Origin: an uncultured Solirubrobacterales bacterium
GTDB taxonomy: Bacteria; Actinomycetota; Thermoleophilia; Solirubrobacterales; 70-9
Direction: 5' to 3'
Assembly (NCBI GenBank): GCA_963820665.1
Contig: CAWGAL010000002.1
Coordinates: 8,598-72,597, forward strand
Length of the DNA stretch: 64,000 nucleotides
The notes beneath the pieces were generated by a model, which saw only the letters and a list, made by a program, of their open reading frames with translations, had not been told where the DNA came from and did not search any database. How positions within the stretch are numbered: position 1 is the stretch's first letter; each line of letters opens with the position of its first letter. Below, piece by piece: positions 2,051 to 10,540 of this stretch. The position numbers were made by a program, and so were the translations under genes.

Positions 2051-2198
2051 GCGACCGGAAACTGCTGCTTCGCATGGAAAGCAGCGGTGTCACCAGCCGA
2101 AATTCCCGCTGCAAAGTGAGAACAGAAGCGAGTAGGCTCACACCCTGGCGTCCAACCAAACAATCCGCGGGCGCGGGCAGCGCATTCGTGTCGCGGCA

Positions 2199-3518
2199 TT
2201 GGCGTGCTTGACGCTATTTGCGCTCGCGGCCTGGGCGGCGCCCCCGGCGAACGCAGCCGACAGCGTCTACTGGACCAACACCGGCGACAACACGATCCGC
2301 GGCGCGCCGCTCGCCGGCGGCGGCACCGTCGACACCCTCTACGGCCCGGCGCAGGGGGTGAGCAACCCCTTGGGGGTGGCGATCGACTCCGCCGCCGGGC
2401 GGATCTACTGGGCCAACGCCAGCGGCAGCACGATCCGCGGCGCCCCGCTCGCCGGCGGCGGCACCGTCGACACCCTCTACGGCCCGGCGCAGGGGGTGAA
2501 CGTCCAGCGAGGGGTGGCGGTCGACCCCGCCGCCGGGCGGATCTACTGGGCCAACCAAGGCGACAACACGATCCGCGGCGCCCCGCTCGCCGGCGGCGGC
2601 ACCGTCGACACCCTCTACGGCCCGGCACAGGGGGTGAACGGCCCGCAAGGGGTGGCGATCGACCCCGCCGCCGGGCGGATCTACTGGACCAACTTCGGCG
2701 GCAGCACGATCCTCGGCGCCCCGCTCGCCGGTGGCGGCACCGTCGACACCCTCTACGGCCCGGCGCAGGGGGTGAACGGCCCCTTCGGGGTGGCGATCGA
2801 CTCCGCCGCCGGGCGGATCTACTGGACCAACGCCAGCGACAACACGATCCGCGGCGCCCCGCTCGCCGGCGGCGGCACCGTCGACACCCTCTACGGCAGC
2901 GCGGCGCAGGGGGTGATCGGCCCCCTCGGGGTGGCGATCGACTCCGCCGCCGGGCGGATCTACTGGGCCAACGTCGGCGGCAGCACGATCCGCGGCGCCC
3001 CGCTCGCCGGCGGCGGCACCGTCGACACCCTCTACGGCCCGGCGCAGGGGGTGAGCGGCCCACTGTTCCTCGCCGCCCTCCGCGCCCCGCTCGGAGTCAC
3101 GGCGCCTGCGATCTCCGGCGGCGGGCAGGTCGGGCAGCTCGCCTGCTCGCAGGGGGGCTGGGCGCCGGACCTGCTCGGCGCCTTCCTCTACCGGGCCCCG
3201 CAGGGCTTCGCCTACCAGTGGCAGCTGAACGGCACCGACATCCCCGGCGCGATGGCGAGCTCCTACACGCCTACGAGCGCGGGCTCCTACGCCTGCCGGG
3301 TGACGGCCTCAAACCAGGCCGGCTCGACCTCGCAGACGAGCGCCGGGGTGAGCGTCGCCGCGGACAACCCGAAGTGCAAGAAGCTCCGCAAGAAGCTGAA
3401 GCGCCAGAAGAAGGGGCTCGCCAGAGCGACCACCGAGGCGAAGCGCTCAATGATCCAAGCGAACATCGCCGACACCAAGAGGCGTCTCAAGAAGCGCGGC
3501 TGCAAAATCCGCAAATAG
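2199..3518 (+). CDS. secreted six-bladed YWTD (LDL-receptor class B-like) beta-propeller protein with Ig-like module and Lys/Cys-rich tail
   Basis: 439-aa ORF with a signal-like N-terminus (LACLTLFALAAWAAPPANA). Six 46-47-aa units of the form IYW[AT]N....TIRGAPLAGGGTVDTLYGPAQGV..P.GVAID.AAGR. Then an Ig-like segment (CSQGGW..YQWQLNGTDIPGA..YTPTSAGSYACRVTASN). The tail is NPKCKKLRKKLKRQKKGL...RRLKKRGCKIRK. Confidence 0.8.
   Translation: MACLTLFALAAWAAPPANAADSVYWTNTGDNTIRGAPLAGGGTVDTLYGPAQGVSNPLGVAIDSAAGRIYWANASGSTIRGAPLAGGGTVDTLYGPAQGVNVQRGVAVDPAAGRIYWANQGDNTIRGAPLAGGGTVDTLYGPAQGVNGPQGVAIDPAAGRIYWTNFGGSTILGAPLAGGGTVDTLYGPAQGVNGPFGVAIDSAAGRIYWTNASDNTIRGAPLAGGGTVDTLYGSAAQGVIGPLGVAIDSAAGRIYWANVGGSTIRGAPLAGGGTVDTLYGPAQGVSGPLFLAALRAPLGVTAPAISGGGQVGQLACSQGGWAPDLLGAFLYRAPQGFAYQWQLNGTDIPGAMASSYTPTSAGSYACRVTASNQAGSTSQTSAGVSVAADNPKCKKLRKKLKRQKKGLARATTEAKRSMIQANIADTKRRLKKRGCKIRK
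2262..3060 (+). repeat. six near-identical tandem 138-bp (one 141-bp) coding repeats
   Basis: The string atctactgg recurs at 2403, 2541, 2679, 2817 and 2958 (period 138, 138, 138, 141). Long identical runs such as ccgctcgccggcggcggcaccgtcgacaccctctacggcccggc occur in every unit. Confidence 0.85.
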
Positions 3519-3674
3519 CTGCTTTGGCGAAAAGCGCAACTCTTCGCGCGCGCCGGTCAGTGGAACTGTGGGGTCGAGCCGCCAGCCGAAAAACTGACCT
3601 TCGCCCGGGGAGGTAGCTGCTTCTCGTCCAAAGCGACTGATCCGGGCGGTTCCCGCTTGTGGCCGGGATCCCTT

Positions 3675-4073
3675 CTAGATGTAGTACATCCCGGCGCCGG
3701 ACTCACGGTCCTCGCGCGCGGCGATGTCGGCGATCGTGTTCGAGCGGAACGTCGCGCGGAGGGAGTCGACGCCCTCGGCCCAGATGCCGCCGGCCTCCTC
3801 GCCCTCCTGGCCGAGCGTGCCGTCGAGTGCCTGGACGACCTCGAGGACCGTGATTTCCTCCGGGGAGCGGGCGAGCGTGTAGCCGCCCTTGGCTCCGCGG
3901 TGGCTCGTGAGGATGCCGGCGCGGCGAAGGGTCGAGAACAGCTGCTCGAGGAACTGCACGGGGATGCCGCGGCGGTCGGCGACCTGGCCGATCGGGACCG
4001 GATCGGTGCCCGAGCGCGACAACTCCGCCAGCGCGACCACCGCGTAACGTGACTTCGAGGTGACCGAGATCAC
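3675..4073 (-). CDS. Rrf2-family transcriptional regulator (CymR/IscR-like)
   Basis: 132-aa ORF starting MISVTSKSRYAVVALAELS, with a winged-helix segment IGQVADRRGIPVQFLEQLFSTLRRAGILTSHRGAKGGYTLAR typical of Rrf2 proteins. Lies near cysEK. Confidence 0.85.
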   Translation of the reverse strand: MISVTSKSRYAVVALAELSRSGTDPVPIGQVADRRGIPVQFLEQLFSTLRRAGILTSHRGAKGGYTLARSPEEITVLEVVQALDGTLGQEGEEAGGIWAEGVDSLRATFRSNTIADIAAREDRESGAGMYYI

Positions 4074-4107
4074 TGGACAAGCTTCTAACAGGTCGGGCGG
4101 ACCTCGC

Positions 4108-4524
4108 GTGCGCCGGCACCCCGTCCCCCGGTCCCGCCTGCTGGCCCCGCTGGCGATGATGATCGCGATCTTCTACCTCTCCGCGCAGCCGTTCGAGGGA
4201 GACCCGCTCGAGTGGTGGGAGGTCCTCGCCAGGAAGCTCGGCCACATGGCCGGCTACGCCCTGCTCACGGGAGCCTGGATCTGGGCCCTCGCGGGTCGTG
4301 TGCGGCGCCCGCTCGCCACCGCGGCGGCGATCTCGTTCCTCTACGCCGTCTCCGACGAATACCACCAGACGTTCGTCGAGAACCGCTCCGGCACCGCCGT
4401 CGACGTGCTGATCGACTCCGCCGGTATCGCGCTCGCGCTTCTGATCGCGCTCGCGCGGCGCCGCCGGCCTCGCGGCACTGTGCCCTCCTCTAGCCCCGCT
4501 TCGCCCGCTTCTTCGCCTTACTGA
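4108..4524 (+). CDS. VanZ-like family membrane protein
   Basis: Hydrophobic protein with VanZ-type motifs (LAMMIAIFYLSAQP, KLGHMAGYALLTGAW, SFLYAVSDEYHQTFVENRSGTAVDVLIDSAGIALALL). The ORF-track start 4060 would overlap the divergent Rrf2 start, so GTG 4108 is preferred. Start uncertain. Confidence 0.7.
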   Translation: MRRHPVPRSRLLAPLAMMIAIFYLSAQPFEGDPLEWWEVLARKLGHMAGYALLTGAWIWALAGRVRRPLATAAAISFLYAVSDEYHQTFVENRSGTAVDVLIDSAGIALALLIALARRRRPRGTVPSSSPASPASSPY

Positions 4525-6283
4525 TGCATTTCTTCCTGGCCGCCTTGCGCTTGATCTTCTTGCACTTGCGCAGCGCGCTCTTGAGGTCGAACGCGGGGTC
4601 ATTGAACGGCGGAGGGGGCACGAACGTCGGGTCGCTCAGGCGCAGCGTGAAGTTCCCTTCCTGCTGAAAGCCCCCGTCGACGACGATCAGGTACCTCGTA
4701 CCGGCGACCGCCGCAAACTGCGTGCGGGCGCCCGGCCCCGGTCCACAGCCCCCTTGGCCCAAGGCCACCTGATCAAGTGAGGCGAGCGTCGACCCCGTGT
4801 ACACGGCGACGAGGTGGAAGAAGTCCGATGCGCACGTGTCCAGCGCGACGGGCGAGTTGGCAGCCGGAGTCCACGAGTACCAGACCGACCGGCTCGGGGG
4901 CGTGTCCTCGGTGTGGTCGGGCTCACCGGCCTCCGCGGATGAATCGACGTTCGAGCCGAAGACGGTCGCGGGCAGCGCGCCTCCGATCAGCTGCGGCGCC
5001 GCGAAGAGATCGTTCGCGGGAGGTTGGAACGGGTGGATGTCGAGCGTGAACGTGCCCTCATCGTCGGGCGCAGGGCTGCCGGCCGCGATGAAGTAGGTCG
5101 TGCCGGCCACCGCGTTGAAGCGAAAGGCGCAGAACGGAAAGCTGTTTATGGTCTCGGCCGGGGTGACGCGGGTCAGGGCATTCACGGACGCGCCGGTATA
5201 GACGCCGAGGCGAGCGCCCTCGGCGCTTTCGCAGACACGGACCCGGGCGAGCACCGAGGCCGACGGGGTCCACTCGAACCAGACCGAGTCGTTGGGCGGA
5301 AAGCTCGCATCCGTCGCTGCACCGTGAAACGGCTCCCCCGCCTGCACCGTCGCGAATTCGTTCGACGCCTGGAGCAGGACCGGCAGGCCCGGTCCTACTG
5401 CCTGAGCGTTCGCGAAGTCGTCGTTCGCGGGCGGGGTCGTCTGGAGCAACCGGAACGTGAACGGCCCCTCGCCGCCGAACGCGCCGCTGAACGCGATCCG
5501 GTAGGTCGTCCCCGCGACTGCGTCGAAGGTCGCCCGGCAGTCGATCGACGTGACGACGGGCGCCCCGAGGGCCGCGAGGGTCGACCCCGTATAGACGGCG
5601 ACGCGCCGGTTACCCGCTCCGAACCTCGGCCGGAAGTCGCAGAAGTCGGCCCGCACCTGGACGTTCGAGGGGGCGACCCACCGGTACCAGACAGAGCGCC
5701 CGCCGGGACCCCCATGGGCGGCGGGCTCGCCGGCCTCGGTGCTCGAGTCGACCGTGGTGCCCGGCGCGGCGACCGGGAGCGCCGGCCCGACGGCCTGGGC
5801 GCTAGCGAAGTTGTCGTTGGCCGGTGGGGAGATCGGGCGAACCACGAAGTTGAACGCCTGCTCGTTGAAGAGACCGTCGACGGCGATCAGATAGGTCGTG
5901 CCGGAGACGGCGCTGAAGCTCAGCTGGCATTCGCCCGCGACGGCGACCGTGGCGAGGGCGTTCACGGCACCTCCTGTGTGGACGCCGATCTGGCCGAAGT
6001 TCAGGTCCGGGTCGCACGAGCTGATGACCACCGACGCGCTCACCGCCGGAGTCCACCGGAACCAGACCGAGCGGGTGGCCGGATTGAAGCCGTGCGGGGG
6101 CTCACCTGGCTCGGCGGTCGCCTCCACGGAGCTCGACGGCACCGAAACCGGGATGGCAGGCCCGACGGTGGTCGCGTTCGCGAAGTTGTCGTTCGCCGGG
6201 GGCGCGGCCGTCGCGGCGGACGGGAGGGCCAGGGCTCCCAGGGCCAACGCCCCAGCAGCGGCGACACCAACCAATCGCTTCAT
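4490..6283 (-). CDS. secreted protein with four tandem PPC-like (pre-peptidase C-terminal-like) modules and Lys/Cys-rich tail
   Basis: 597-aa ORF with signal peptide MKRLVGVAAAGALALGALALPSAATA. Four repeats of about 135 aa each start PPAND.FA.A and carry EAGEP.H, SVW[FY].W.P, VYTG....L and AVAGTTY.IA..G. The C-terminus is LRKCKKIKRKAARKKCISKAKKRAKRG. The domain name is tentative. Confidence 0.75.
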   Translation of the reverse strand: MKRLVGVAAAGALALGALALPSAATAAPPANDNFANATTVGPAIPVSVPSSSVEATAEPGEPPHGFNPATRSVWFRWTPAVSASVVISSCDPDLNFGQIGVHTGGAVNALATVAVAGECQLSFSAVSGTTYLIAVDGLFNEQAFNFVVRPISPPANDNFASAQAVGPALPVAAPGTTVDSSTEAGEPAAHGGPGGRSVWYRWVAPSNVQVRADFCDFRPRFGAGNRRVAVYTGSTLAALGAPVVTSIDCRATFDAVAGTTYRIAFSGAFGGEGPFTFRLLQTTPPANDDFANAQAVGPGLPVLLQASNEFATVQAGEPFHGAATDASFPPNDSVWFEWTPSASVLARVRVCESAEGARLGVYTGASVNALTRVTPAETINSFPFCAFRFNAVAGTTYFIAAGSPAPDDEGTFTLDIHPFQPPANDLFAAPQLIGGALPATVFGSNVDSSAEAGEPDHTEDTPPSRSVWYSWTPAANSPVALDTCASDFFHLVAVYTGSTLASLDQVALGQGGCGPGPGARTQFAAVAGTRYLIVVDGGFQQEGNFTLRLSDPTFVPPPPFNDPAFDLKSALRKCKKIKRKAARKKCISKAKKRAKRG

Positions 6284-9655: not shown

Positions 9656-10540
9656 CTAGGGACAGCTGCGGAGCGTGTCGCGCCCCGCCCCGCCCTTGCA
9701 GCTATCGCTGTTACGACCTCCGTTGAGCAGGTCGTTGCCGCGCTGTCCACGGAGCACATCCCGCCCTGCCTTACCTCGGATCAGGTCACCTCCGCCGCCG
9801 CCGAGCAACCTGTCGCGACCCGGACCGCCGATCATCGTGTCGGCGCCGGTTCCGCCGACCACCCGGTCCACACCGATGTCAGCGCAGATCAGGTCGTTGC
9901 CGCCGCCGGCGAAGATTCGATCGTTGCCGGCAAACCCGCGAATGACGTCGGCACCCGCTGTGCCGACCAGCACGTCAGCACCCGCAGTGCCAGAGATCGT
10001 CGGGGTAGCGCAGCTGGCCCCCTTTGGCTTCTTCGGCTTCTTCCCGGTCGCCTTCTTGTTGATCACCGTGGTTTCGGTGTCCTGGTTGTTCGCTGCATTC
10101 GTGTCGTCGACACTGGCAAGTGAAGCGGTGTTCGAAACCGTTCCCGTCCTCTTCGCCTTGACGAGAATCGTGACGGTGGCGGTCGTGCCGGCGTTGACCT
10201 GGCCGAGGTTGCAGGTGACGTCGGCGCCTGTCCGCTGACAGCTGCCGGCCGTCGCCGATGACGAGACGTAGTCGACGTCCGCGGGCAGCGTGTCTGTGAC
10301 GACCACCGCCGAGGCGTCACTGGCTCCCTGGTTGCGCGTCGCGATCGTGTAGCTGAAGTTGTCACCCTGAACAGCCGGGTCAGCGCTATCGCTCTTGGTC
10401 AGGATGAGATCGGTCGGACCGACCGCTGCCGTCGCGCCGCCCGGGCCGACCATCATCAGGACAAGGGCGGCGAAGACCGTTCCTGCCAGGCCGACCATCC
10501 GAAGGCCGCCCAGGCGCCGCCTGCAAACGTCCGTGTTCAT
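9656..10540 (-). CDS. secreted DUF11-domain protein with C-terminal RTX (hemolysin-type Ca-binding) repeats
   Basis: 294-aa ORF with a signal/TM segment (LRMVGLAGTVFAALVLMMV). The DUF11 pattern is DLILTKSDSADPAVQGDNFSYTIATRNQGASDASAVVVTDTLPADVDYVS...NTASLASVDDTNAANNQDTETT. A Lys-rich linker KKATGKKPKKPKG follows, then GGxGxD nonapeptides (GTAGADVLVGTAGADVIRGFAGNDRIFAGGGNDL...). Strong SD (AAGGAGGA) before the ATG. Confidence 0.8.
   Translation of the reverse strand: MNTDVCRRRLGGLRMVGLAGTVFAALVLMMVGPGGATAAVGPTDLILTKSDSADPAVQGDNFSYTIATRNQGASDASAVVVTDTLPADVDYVSSSATAGSCQRTGADVTCNLGQVNAGTTATVTILVKAKRTGTVSNTASLASVDDTNAANNQDTETTVINKKATGKKPKKPKGASCATPTISGTAGADVLVGTAGADVIRGFAGNDRIFAGGGNDLICADIGVDRVVGGTGADTMIGGPGRDRLLGGGGGDLIRGKAGRDVLRGQRGNDLLNGGRNSDSCKGGAGRDTLRSCP

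Follow-up and report, generated by a model that had tools for sequence, protein, structure and literature searches.

Lysine-Rich Two-Cysteine Tails on Exported Proteins of Uncultured Solirubrobacterales: A Candidate Polycationic Retention Module

Two secreted proteins of otherwise unrelated architecture, designated here A and B, are encoded in a 64,000 nucleotide stretch of DNA from an uncultured Solirubrobacterales bacterium (GenBank assembly GCA_963820665.1, contig CAWGAL010000002.1, C2:8598-72597; hereafter the window) and both end in a strongly basic, Lys-rich tail that contains two Cys residues. Such tails recur in the source genome and in its relatives, where, judging from the sequences, they appear to form a lineage-specific family of small terminal modules on Sec-exported proteins. 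We propose, with moderate confidence, that they are disulfide-stapled polycationic modules that retain exported proteins on an anionic component of the envelope or matrix.

Results

A first-pass annotation of the window had described KCKK-opening, two-Cys and highly basic tails at the ends of A and B, and when both open reading frames (ORFs) and their tails were re-derived by ORF listing and translation the tails were found exactly as claimed. The 50-residue tail of A is NPKCKKLRKKLKRQKKGLARATTEAKRSMIQANIADTKRRLKKRGCKIRK, running from NPKCKKLRKK to KKRGCKIRK, with a net charge of ∼+19 and exactly two Cys, Cys393 (3375-3377) and Cys435 (3501-3503). That of B is FDLKSALRKCKKIKRKAARKKCISKAKKRAKRG, with a net charge of ∼+16 and, again, exactly two Cys, Cys574 (4562-4564) and Cys586 (4526-4528). 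The source genome (2.14 Mb in 5 contigs, 70% G+C, 63.7% complete) has only 2.4% Lys and 1.1% Cys in its likely coding frames, and the pairing of such tails in A and B is far above chance.

A six-frame scan establishes that ∼20 reading frames of this genome end in a Lys-rich two-Cys tail. Using a strict definition of basic Cys pairs, 16 of the 19 pairs found in six frames lie 5-21 residues before a stop codon, and 52 of 77 Lys-rich 30-residue windows fall in the last tenth of their proteins. Proteins that combine Lys-rich last 30 residues with at least two Cys in the last 45 number 12, compared with 2.5 expected (Fisher p = 5e-7). A signal peptide is obvious by eye in nearly all of the intact tail-bearing members, and a crude predictor assigns one to 8 of the 12 tail proteins against a background of 17.7% (p = 2e-4). 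Cytoplasmic proteins of the genome with Lys-rich tails do exist, but these are of a Cys-free Ala/Lys/Pro (AKP or KKAP) type. The earlier suggestion of an unnamed C-terminal module on unrelated secreted proteins is thus borne out: the tail is not confined to A and B, being abundant in relatives as well, it is less common on cytoplasmic proteins and does not characterize the C-termini of the genome at large, and it is not a compositional artefact. Six tails compared with Pfam and NCBIfam at E ≤ 10 matched no model except for two chance-level matches, and the anchoring regions gave no Pfam or NCBIfam match to LysM, SLH, GW, CWB, WxL, SPOR or PG_binding. The kinship that had been suggested for the Lys-rich linker of a DUF11+RTX protein, on the other hand, is not supported, as the segment KKATGKKPKKPKGASC (minus strand, window 10004-10063) lies inside the protein, with one Cys and without a bracketing pair; its resemblance to the tails is compositional only and it was rejected as a family member.

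The module measures ∼23-54 residues, is made up mostly of Lys, has a net charge of +15 to +23 (mean 17.5) and two conserved Cys, and Pro/Thr/Ala-rich linkers stand before nearly all tails. Its passengers in the source genome include, by Pfam, an S8 subtilase, a GDPD phosphodiesterase, FG-GAP, a galactose-oxidase-like E-set protein, an alpha/beta hydrolase and RTX, along with the propeller+PKD protein A, the PPC-repeat protein B and many others for which Pfam gives no match. A theme near the end, [KR]-C-[KR]-K ... [KR]-C-x-[KR]-K, is common to at least four designs. The commonest, the loop type (CKKGxKLKKGKC), follows the consensus KKCKKG[RQK]KL[KR]KGKC[VK]KKKRKK with a Cys spacing of 10. There are also a longer loop type, KCKKGFKLKKIKKKGKKPKKKC, an Ala-spaced type, KCKKKKKG..AAASAKKKKC, and the A and B types described below. 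In other Solirubrobacterales metagenome-assembled genomes (MAGs) 96 of 104 distinct loop-type tails (CKKGxKLxKGKC) stop 6-12 residues past the second Cys, and all 104 are preceded by 15-30 residues of P/T/A-rich linker. Because Val after the second Cys is 87% conserved, despite lying outside the search pattern, while the Gly, Leu and Val codons differ synonymously, selection on the tails acts at the level of the peptide. In a single tail-rich MAG (CAWDBV010000002.1; L064, L076, L041, L045) there are arrays of 2-4 consecutive same-strand genes, ∼1-1.8 kb apart, that all have the same loop-type tail, which suggests tandem expansion of tail-bearing paralogues.

The exchangeability of the subtypes is well illustrated by orthologues of the GDPD enzyme. 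These carry the loop type in the source genome (G000) and in G001, G006 and G021 (Arg-enriched in the last), the longer loop type in G003 and the Ala-spaced type in G002, whereas orthologues from the tail-poor genomes G008, G010 and G036 stop directly after the catalytic domain and those of G005, G014 and G022 have an unrelated C-terminal extension in place of a tail. Since a single enzyme can thus have one subtype, another or none on its orthologues, the subtypes are interchangeable, functionally equivalent add-ons whose presence tracks a trait of the genome. The tail-bearing secreted GDPD-family phosphodiesterase of the source genome is found at C5:47708-48958 (L008/L119), and the tail-rich genomes have no TagF-type polymerase (PF04464); GDPD-family enzymes degrade teichoic acid in Bacillus.

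In two exported proteins of the source genome a basic two-Cys loop follows straight on from the cleavage site of the signal peptide (KKKCKKAKWKC and KNCKNKKGKDKKCKKGK; Table 1), and with such a loop at the mature N-terminus the module may be regarded as terminal rather than strictly C-terminal, presumably working at either end. Secreted proteins with Cys-free poly-Lys ends occur as well (Table 1), one of which (on C4), with the motif FFCGLHPVQM, resembles by eye a copper protein of the cupredoxin type. What the tail types have in common is positive charge.

Counts of the DNA pattern KCKK-x5-22-KC were obtained for the source genome and 40 relatives. There are 8 matches in the source genome, 11-12 in each of three congeners (G001-G003), 30 in G006 and 27 in G021, each of another genus of the family, 1-2 in each of five further genomes and 0 in the remaining 30; a reversed-pattern control gave 1 match over all 41 genomes. 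Within the order, then, the tails are plentiful in the genus of the source genome and in two further genera of its family, and occur sporadically or not at all elsewhere. A search for the loop-type pattern in one genome per species (185,579 species) returned 87 stretches and, among the matches listed, all derive from uncultured Solirubrobacterales MAGs, mostly long-read soil MAGs, except for one from a MAG labelled Chloroflexia. In this exception (L080:4981-5019, CAVSUG010000001.1) TKCKKGYKLVKGKCKKVKKKGL follows a Pro/Thr linker, and horizontal transfer, convergence or mis-binning could account for it. Two further patterns were set aside. Applied to 41 relatives, a degenerate K/R DNA pattern matched as often in reversed as in forward form except in G021 (15 forward vs 1 reversed), and its gap setting left out the commonest subtype, so that it cannot establish tail-poor genomes as truly poor. 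A strict pattern, CxK-x8-10-C[VI]KK, when applied to 201 genomes of the order, gave only 4 sites in the source genome and, beyond the expanded genera, only 1-3 in each genome, and is too strict for counting.

The homologues of A and B provide a gauge of how faithfully each tail is kept. Scoring 8,000 candidates for B gave 2,166 proteins at E ≤ 0.001, and the source names, where given, are Solirubrobacterales. Of the best 120, 85 carry the B-type tail, with consensus [ND]LKxALKKC+K[IL]Kxxxx+RxxC[IV]KKAKKRAK; 93 of 103 units have a Cys spacing of 11, 18 homologues bear a doubled unit with four Cys, and both Cys574 and Cys586 are invariant across a 71-sequence homologue alignment. A phmmer search with the 46-residue tail of B against 1.84 billion representative proteins gave 2 matches at E ≤ 1e-3, the query being too short for a distribution to be read from it. 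The A-type tail, with consensus DPKCKKLRKKLKRQKKGLAKAxxEAKRSMIQANIKDTKKRLKKLGC-stop, is kept in ∼12 homologues of A, where the usual ending is RLKKLGC-stop, and is found in addition on the unrelated passengers P0232, P0236 and P0238-P0240; other homologues of the A propeller are tailless or have different C-terminal domains.

AlphaFold2 (AF2) models of A and B, built with homologue alignments, confidently predict that both tails form helical hairpins. For A a helix at 391-409 is joined by a loop, 410-412, to a second helix at 413-432 (predicted local distance difference test, pLDDT, 86-95), and for B helices at 567-575 and 580-596 flank a loop at 576-579 (pLDDT 84-96). In the A hairpin the Cys residues are at the open end, Cys393 being the third residue of helix 1 and Cys435 lying three residues past helix 2, and this pair marks the place where a disulfide would staple the predicted hairpin; the B hairpin has one Cys per helix. 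Fixed Cys spacing and a Cys count that is always even in the tails lend weak support to such a disulfide, and there is a weak even-Cys bias in exported proteins (p = 0.04; 84 even and 60 odd, compared with 545 and 567 among cytoplasmic ones).

The blades of the A propeller are all-beta in the model, with pLDDT values of 94-98, and the B model has a mean pLDDT of 91. Each repeat of B starts with PPANDNFA and contains two invariant Cys (alignment A1). The repeats themselves have no Pfam match, with PF04151 found on homologues of B, and Foldseek matches them to ColG s3a-s3b and to CUB and neuropilin domains, so that the label PPC-like given previously to B is a fair one for this clostridial collagenase collagen-binding (PPC)/CUB-like fold. 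The signal peptide of A is of the Sec type, but the listed TTG start leaves it without a charged n-region. An Arg-rich n-region, RGRGQRIR, is in frame upstream of the TTG (∼2166-2198) with no canonical start codon, and in the homologue consensus (alignment A2) ∼28 residues precede AD.VYW. The in-frame codons upstream (within window 2136-2201) encode ...TIRGRGQRIRVAA, and because no ATG, GTG or TTG is to be found there the real start of A must use a rare codon, ATC or ATT, unless it has been lost through an assembly error.

Table 1. Features of proteins A and B and of related sequences (window positions unless a contig of the source genome is given)
Feature	Position	Strand	Description and basis
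Protein A	2199-3518	+	439 aa from listed TTG
A signal peptide	2199-2255	+	h-region and ANA/AD cleavage site; translation, alignment A2
A passenger, part 1	2262-3101	+	Six-bladed YWTD/NHL/PQQ-like beta-propeller; Pfam PQQ_2 (2e-11), NHL, Ldl_recept_b; AF2
A passenger, part 2	3105-3356	+	PKD/Ig-like beta-sandwich; Pfam PKD (7e-5), He_PIG, Ig_2; AF2 strands 314-386
A tail	3366-3515	+	Residues 390-439, long CX41C subtype; translation, AF2, homologues
Protein B	4490-6283	-	597 aa
B signal peptide	6206-6283	-	MKRLVGVAAAGALALGALALPSAATA/AP, Sec-type; translation
B passenger	4637-6205	-	Four tandem PPC/collagen-binding-domain-like beta-sandwich repeats; AF2, Foldseek, homologues
B linker	4592-4636	-	Pro-rich, SDPTFVPPPPFNDPA; translation
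B tail	4493-4591	-	Residues 565-597, CX11C subtype; translation, AF2, homologues
Internal linker of DUF11+RTX protein	10004-10063	-	Lys-rich, INKKATGKKPKKPKGASCAT; one Cys, RTX domain then follows
N-terminal-loop protein	C4, near plus-strand position 2271	-	ORF of the source genome
N-terminal-loop protein	C5:116257-117000	+	ORF of the source genome
Secreted Cys-free poly-Lys end	C3:94836-95720	+	K12RKK
Secreted Cys-free poly-Lys end	C4:364610-366124	+	K9ANAKK

Genes A and B are convergent and non-adjacent. Of the two small ORFs between them, 3675-4073 (minus strand) and 4060-4524 (plus strand), one is by eye a small membrane protein (VanZ-like) and the other an Rrf2-type regulator; the ORF at 4060-4524 runs convergently into gene B, with a 35-nt overlap at the 3' end of that gene. 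Frameshifts are numerous in the source genome and several of its tail-bearing genes are frameshift-broken, in keeping with assembly errors; the N-terminal part is in a different frame at C1:9060-10328, C2:75650-76462, C5:392235-392846 and C5:656558-656881. The (AAG)n runs at the ends of tail genes are apparent frameshift hot spots in long-read MAGs (L037, L042, L058, L082, L112), and some frameshifted tails run on into long Arg-rich extensions.

Discussion

The function that we favor for the tails is retention by charge. After export the module would fold into a hairpin, an alpha-hairpin in the A and B subtypes and, for the commonest one, CKKGxKLKKGKC, probably a loop resembling a beta-hairpin, with the two Cys stapling the hairpin by a disulfide to give a protease-resistant polycationic knob. 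The knob would bind electrostatically to a polyanion in the cell envelope or matrix, be it the head groups of anionic phospholipids, an acidic polysaccharide of wall or matrix, or extracellular DNA, while the linker would let the passenger enzyme or adhesin extend outward, and the net effect would be that soluble exoproteins are held non-covalently at or near the producer. Possible ligands are anionic membrane lipids, another acidic polymer, extracellular DNA and external soil polyanions.

A number of observations weigh against this proposal. The genomes counted as tail-rich are six, including the source genome, and the source organisms are uncultured MAGs. None of the six has a TagF-type teichoic-acid polymerase (PF04464), and teichoic acid was rejected as the ligand for want of co-occurrence. 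Glucuronyl C5-epimerase (PF06662), the marker of an acidic exopolysaccharide (EPS) island in the window, is absent from G006 and G021 and present in many tail-poor genomes, and the window's uronic-acid EPS was likewise rejected, PF06662 not tracking tail abundance. The first-pass annotation had put forward a C-terminal retention module that binds an anionic wall polymer or the acidic EPS; of this, retention by charge is the best-supported candidate function, and co-occurrence with a polymer locus is negative for TagF-type teichoic acid and for the epimerase-marked EPS. The neighbours of 85 loop-type loci, when clustered, include no recurrent non-housekeeping gene, a result that still allows for an enzyme elsewhere in the genome; the clusters that do recur are tail-bearing paralogues and housekeeping genes (AidB-like acyl-CoA dehydrogenase, acyl-CoA synthetase, GcpE, HpcH aldolase). 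As to the disulfide, Cys574 and Cys586 of B are asymmetric about the loop predicted by AF2, and VKOR, in actinobacteria the usual partner disulfide oxidase, turned up in just 1 of the 6 tail-rich genomes searched and not in the source genome; it was rejected as the tail oxidase, there being no correlation with tails. Finally, translocation of a stretch with ∼16 positive charges is expected to be difficult.

Alternatively, the tail could be a sorting or attachment signal that lacks a transmembrane segment, with an enzyme that either cleaves it or links it covalently through Lys (by a transglutaminase or a sortase-like isopeptide) or through a modified Cys, as has been proposed for the invariant Cys of MYXO-CTERM-type signals. 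Many unrelated passengers per genome with one terminal tag after a linker are a hallmark of sorting domains, the Cys are invariant, with Cys-containing sorting signals as precedent for a functional Cys (Haft 2023), and the distribution is restricted by lineage, with genera having either many tails or few, a pattern shared with many-to-one sorting systems. However, the tails contain no hydrophobic segment, the maximum Kyte-Doolittle value for any 15-mer in the last 50 residues being ≤1.28 in 20 members of the source genome and the mean 0.45 in 103 loop-type tails, compared with 2.42 in an LPXTG mini-protein of the source genome. A membrane anchor operating by the positive-inside rule was rejected on the same grounds. 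In addition, no NCBIfam sorting-domain model matched the full-length tail proteins, structurally different subtypes replace each other on orthologues, the module is also found at the mature N-terminus, Cys-free poly-Lys tails exist, and the 85 loci have no recurrent non-housekeeping neighbour. We consider such a signal unlikely, and the idea of a secretion or sorting tag raised previously is weakened by the missing transmembrane segment, by the lack of a partner adjoining the 85 loci and by the N-terminal occurrences. Improbable as well is a new sorting/attachment system of monoderm Actinomycetota, needing no transmembrane segment, in which polybasic first contact is followed by covalent fixation, by an enzyme restricted to the tail-rich genera, through lipidation or a thioether at Cys or a Lys isopeptide cross-link to wall or matrix.

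A second possibility, to which we assign only a small probability, is that the tail serves in substrate targeting, sticking enzymes and adhesins to soil polyanions such as clay, silica, humic matter, extracellular DNA or foreign acidic polysaccharides, much like a carbohydrate-binding module but by charge. The organisms are indeed known from soil MAGs, the passengers are hydrolases and adhesin-like repeat proteins, neither envelope polymer tested co-occurs with the tails, and ScpH offers a precedent for binding of extracellular DNA (see below). Computationally, targeting of this sort is indistinguishable from self-anchoring; a Pro-rich linker with a terminal tag mimics wall-spanning anchors, and the tails dominate among the C-terminal features of this genome, which is almost without sortase substrates, suggesting a role at the cell surface.

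It is very improbable that the tail acts to balance charge, to aid solubility or to bind the acidic passenger, whether as an intramolecular inhibitor or in head-to-tail self-assembly. The passengers are for the most part acidic (mean -5 net charges per 100 residues), but some are neutral, and the charge of the tail stays at +15 to +23 while that of the passenger ranges from 0 to -55, whatever the passenger size. Because tail charge is independent of passenger charge, a binding module fits better than balancing of the isoelectric point (pI), and adjustment of pI needs neither a fixed Cys pair nor a flexible linker. That the tails are a compositional or assembly artefact of low-complexity (AAG)n DNA at gene ends, with no selected function, is scarcely credible: (AAG)n is error-prone, several tails in long-read MAGs are frameshift-extended and the source genome is rich in frameshifts, but conservation extends to the Cys, Gly, Leu and Val positions, whose codons vary synonymously, the same tails are present in JGI, ENA, NCBI and Logan assemblies, they are kept across homologues of 40-55% identity, and they are strongly enriched at termini and on proteins that have signal peptides.

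Few soil actinobacteria are as abundant, or as little cultured, as the Solirubrobacterales. With one intact LPXTG-like substrate found in the source genome as against ∼20 tails, and 27-30 pattern matches in G006 and G021, the module is probably the main device by which secreted hydrolases, phosphodiesterases and adhesin-like proteins are kept near the cell. It is a candidate for a new Pfam/NCBIfam family with several subtypes that would annotate many proteins now listed as hypothetical, and it provides a simple means of marking, in MAGs, the secreted surface proteome. A polycation of this kind, 25 residues long and stapled by a disulfide, could also serve as a small tag for surface display or immobilisation and, should a dedicated processing enzyme exist after all, a new sorting system would have been found.

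Comparison with Known Systems

Tripartite C-terminal sorting signals are defined in part by having a transmembrane segment that is hydrophobic, and the Cys-containing MYXO-, JDVT-, Synerg- and CGP-CTERM signals provide precedent for a functional Cys (Haft 2023, bioRxiv 10.1101/2023.06.07.544157). As with these signals (LPXTG/sortase, PEP-CTERM/exosortase, GlyGly-CTERM, PGF-CTERM, MYXO-CTERM and others), the tails are short terminal tags on many unrelated exported proteins, with a frequent Pro-rich linker, a basic extreme C-terminus, an invariant Cys and a lineage-restricted distribution. They differ in having no transmembrane segment, in being Lys-rich rather than Arg-rich, in the two Cys that bracket the basic stretch and in occurring at N-termini too, with no NCBIfam match and no cognate enzyme adjoining the 85 loci. 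Because there is no membrane helix, the tails are not a classical tripartite sorting signal.

Folded domains for display on monoderm surfaces provide a further comparison. LysM, SLH, GW/SH3_8, CWB1/2 and WxL are like the module in the non-covalent envelope display of varied passengers that we propose for it, but these are domains of 40-80 or more residues that recognize specific glycopolymers, whereas the tails are polycations of 23-54 residues, and a review of monoderm surface display has no polybasic tail in its listing (PMC5817068). Closer in kind is ScpH of Streptococcus sanguinis, in which a Lys-rich C-terminal tail is reported to replace an LPXTG anchor and to bind extracellular DNA (bioRxiv 10.64898/2026.05.25.726231). 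Like ScpH, a secreted subtilisin-like protease with a Lys-rich tail where its orthologues have an anchor, retained on a polyanion, the tails of the source genome stand as Lys-rich ends of exported proteins in place of a covalent anchor. The ScpH tail works together with a FIVAR domain and is confined to a single protein family, and no conserved Cys pair is mentioned in the passages covered; a sequence relationship to the tails is not expected.

Mycobacterial proteins of the HBHA/Hlp type have a Lys/Ala/Pro-rich C-terminal domain that is surface-exposed and binds heparan sulfate. The likeness is that of a Lys-rich C-terminal domain on an actinobacterial surface protein, but HBHA has neither a signal peptide nor a Cys pair and its repeats are of the KKAAPA type, so that it is the Cys-free AKP-type cytoplasmic tails of the source genome that resemble this class. 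Finally, short Lys-rich segments that are closed by a disulfide or lie beside a Cys, and that bind anionic lipids or glycolipids by charge, are familiar from the 'Rana box' loops of frog peptides, the loop of Limulus anti-LPS factor and thanatin, and from the polybasic membrane anchor of K-Ras4B. These are eukaryotic and without homology to the tails, and K-Ras is prenylated at the Cys of a CAAX box, which the tails do not have. The full-text literature that was searched does not describe the tail, and the module thus appears to be undescribed in the databases and papers covered, while the principle by which it would work is a familiar one.

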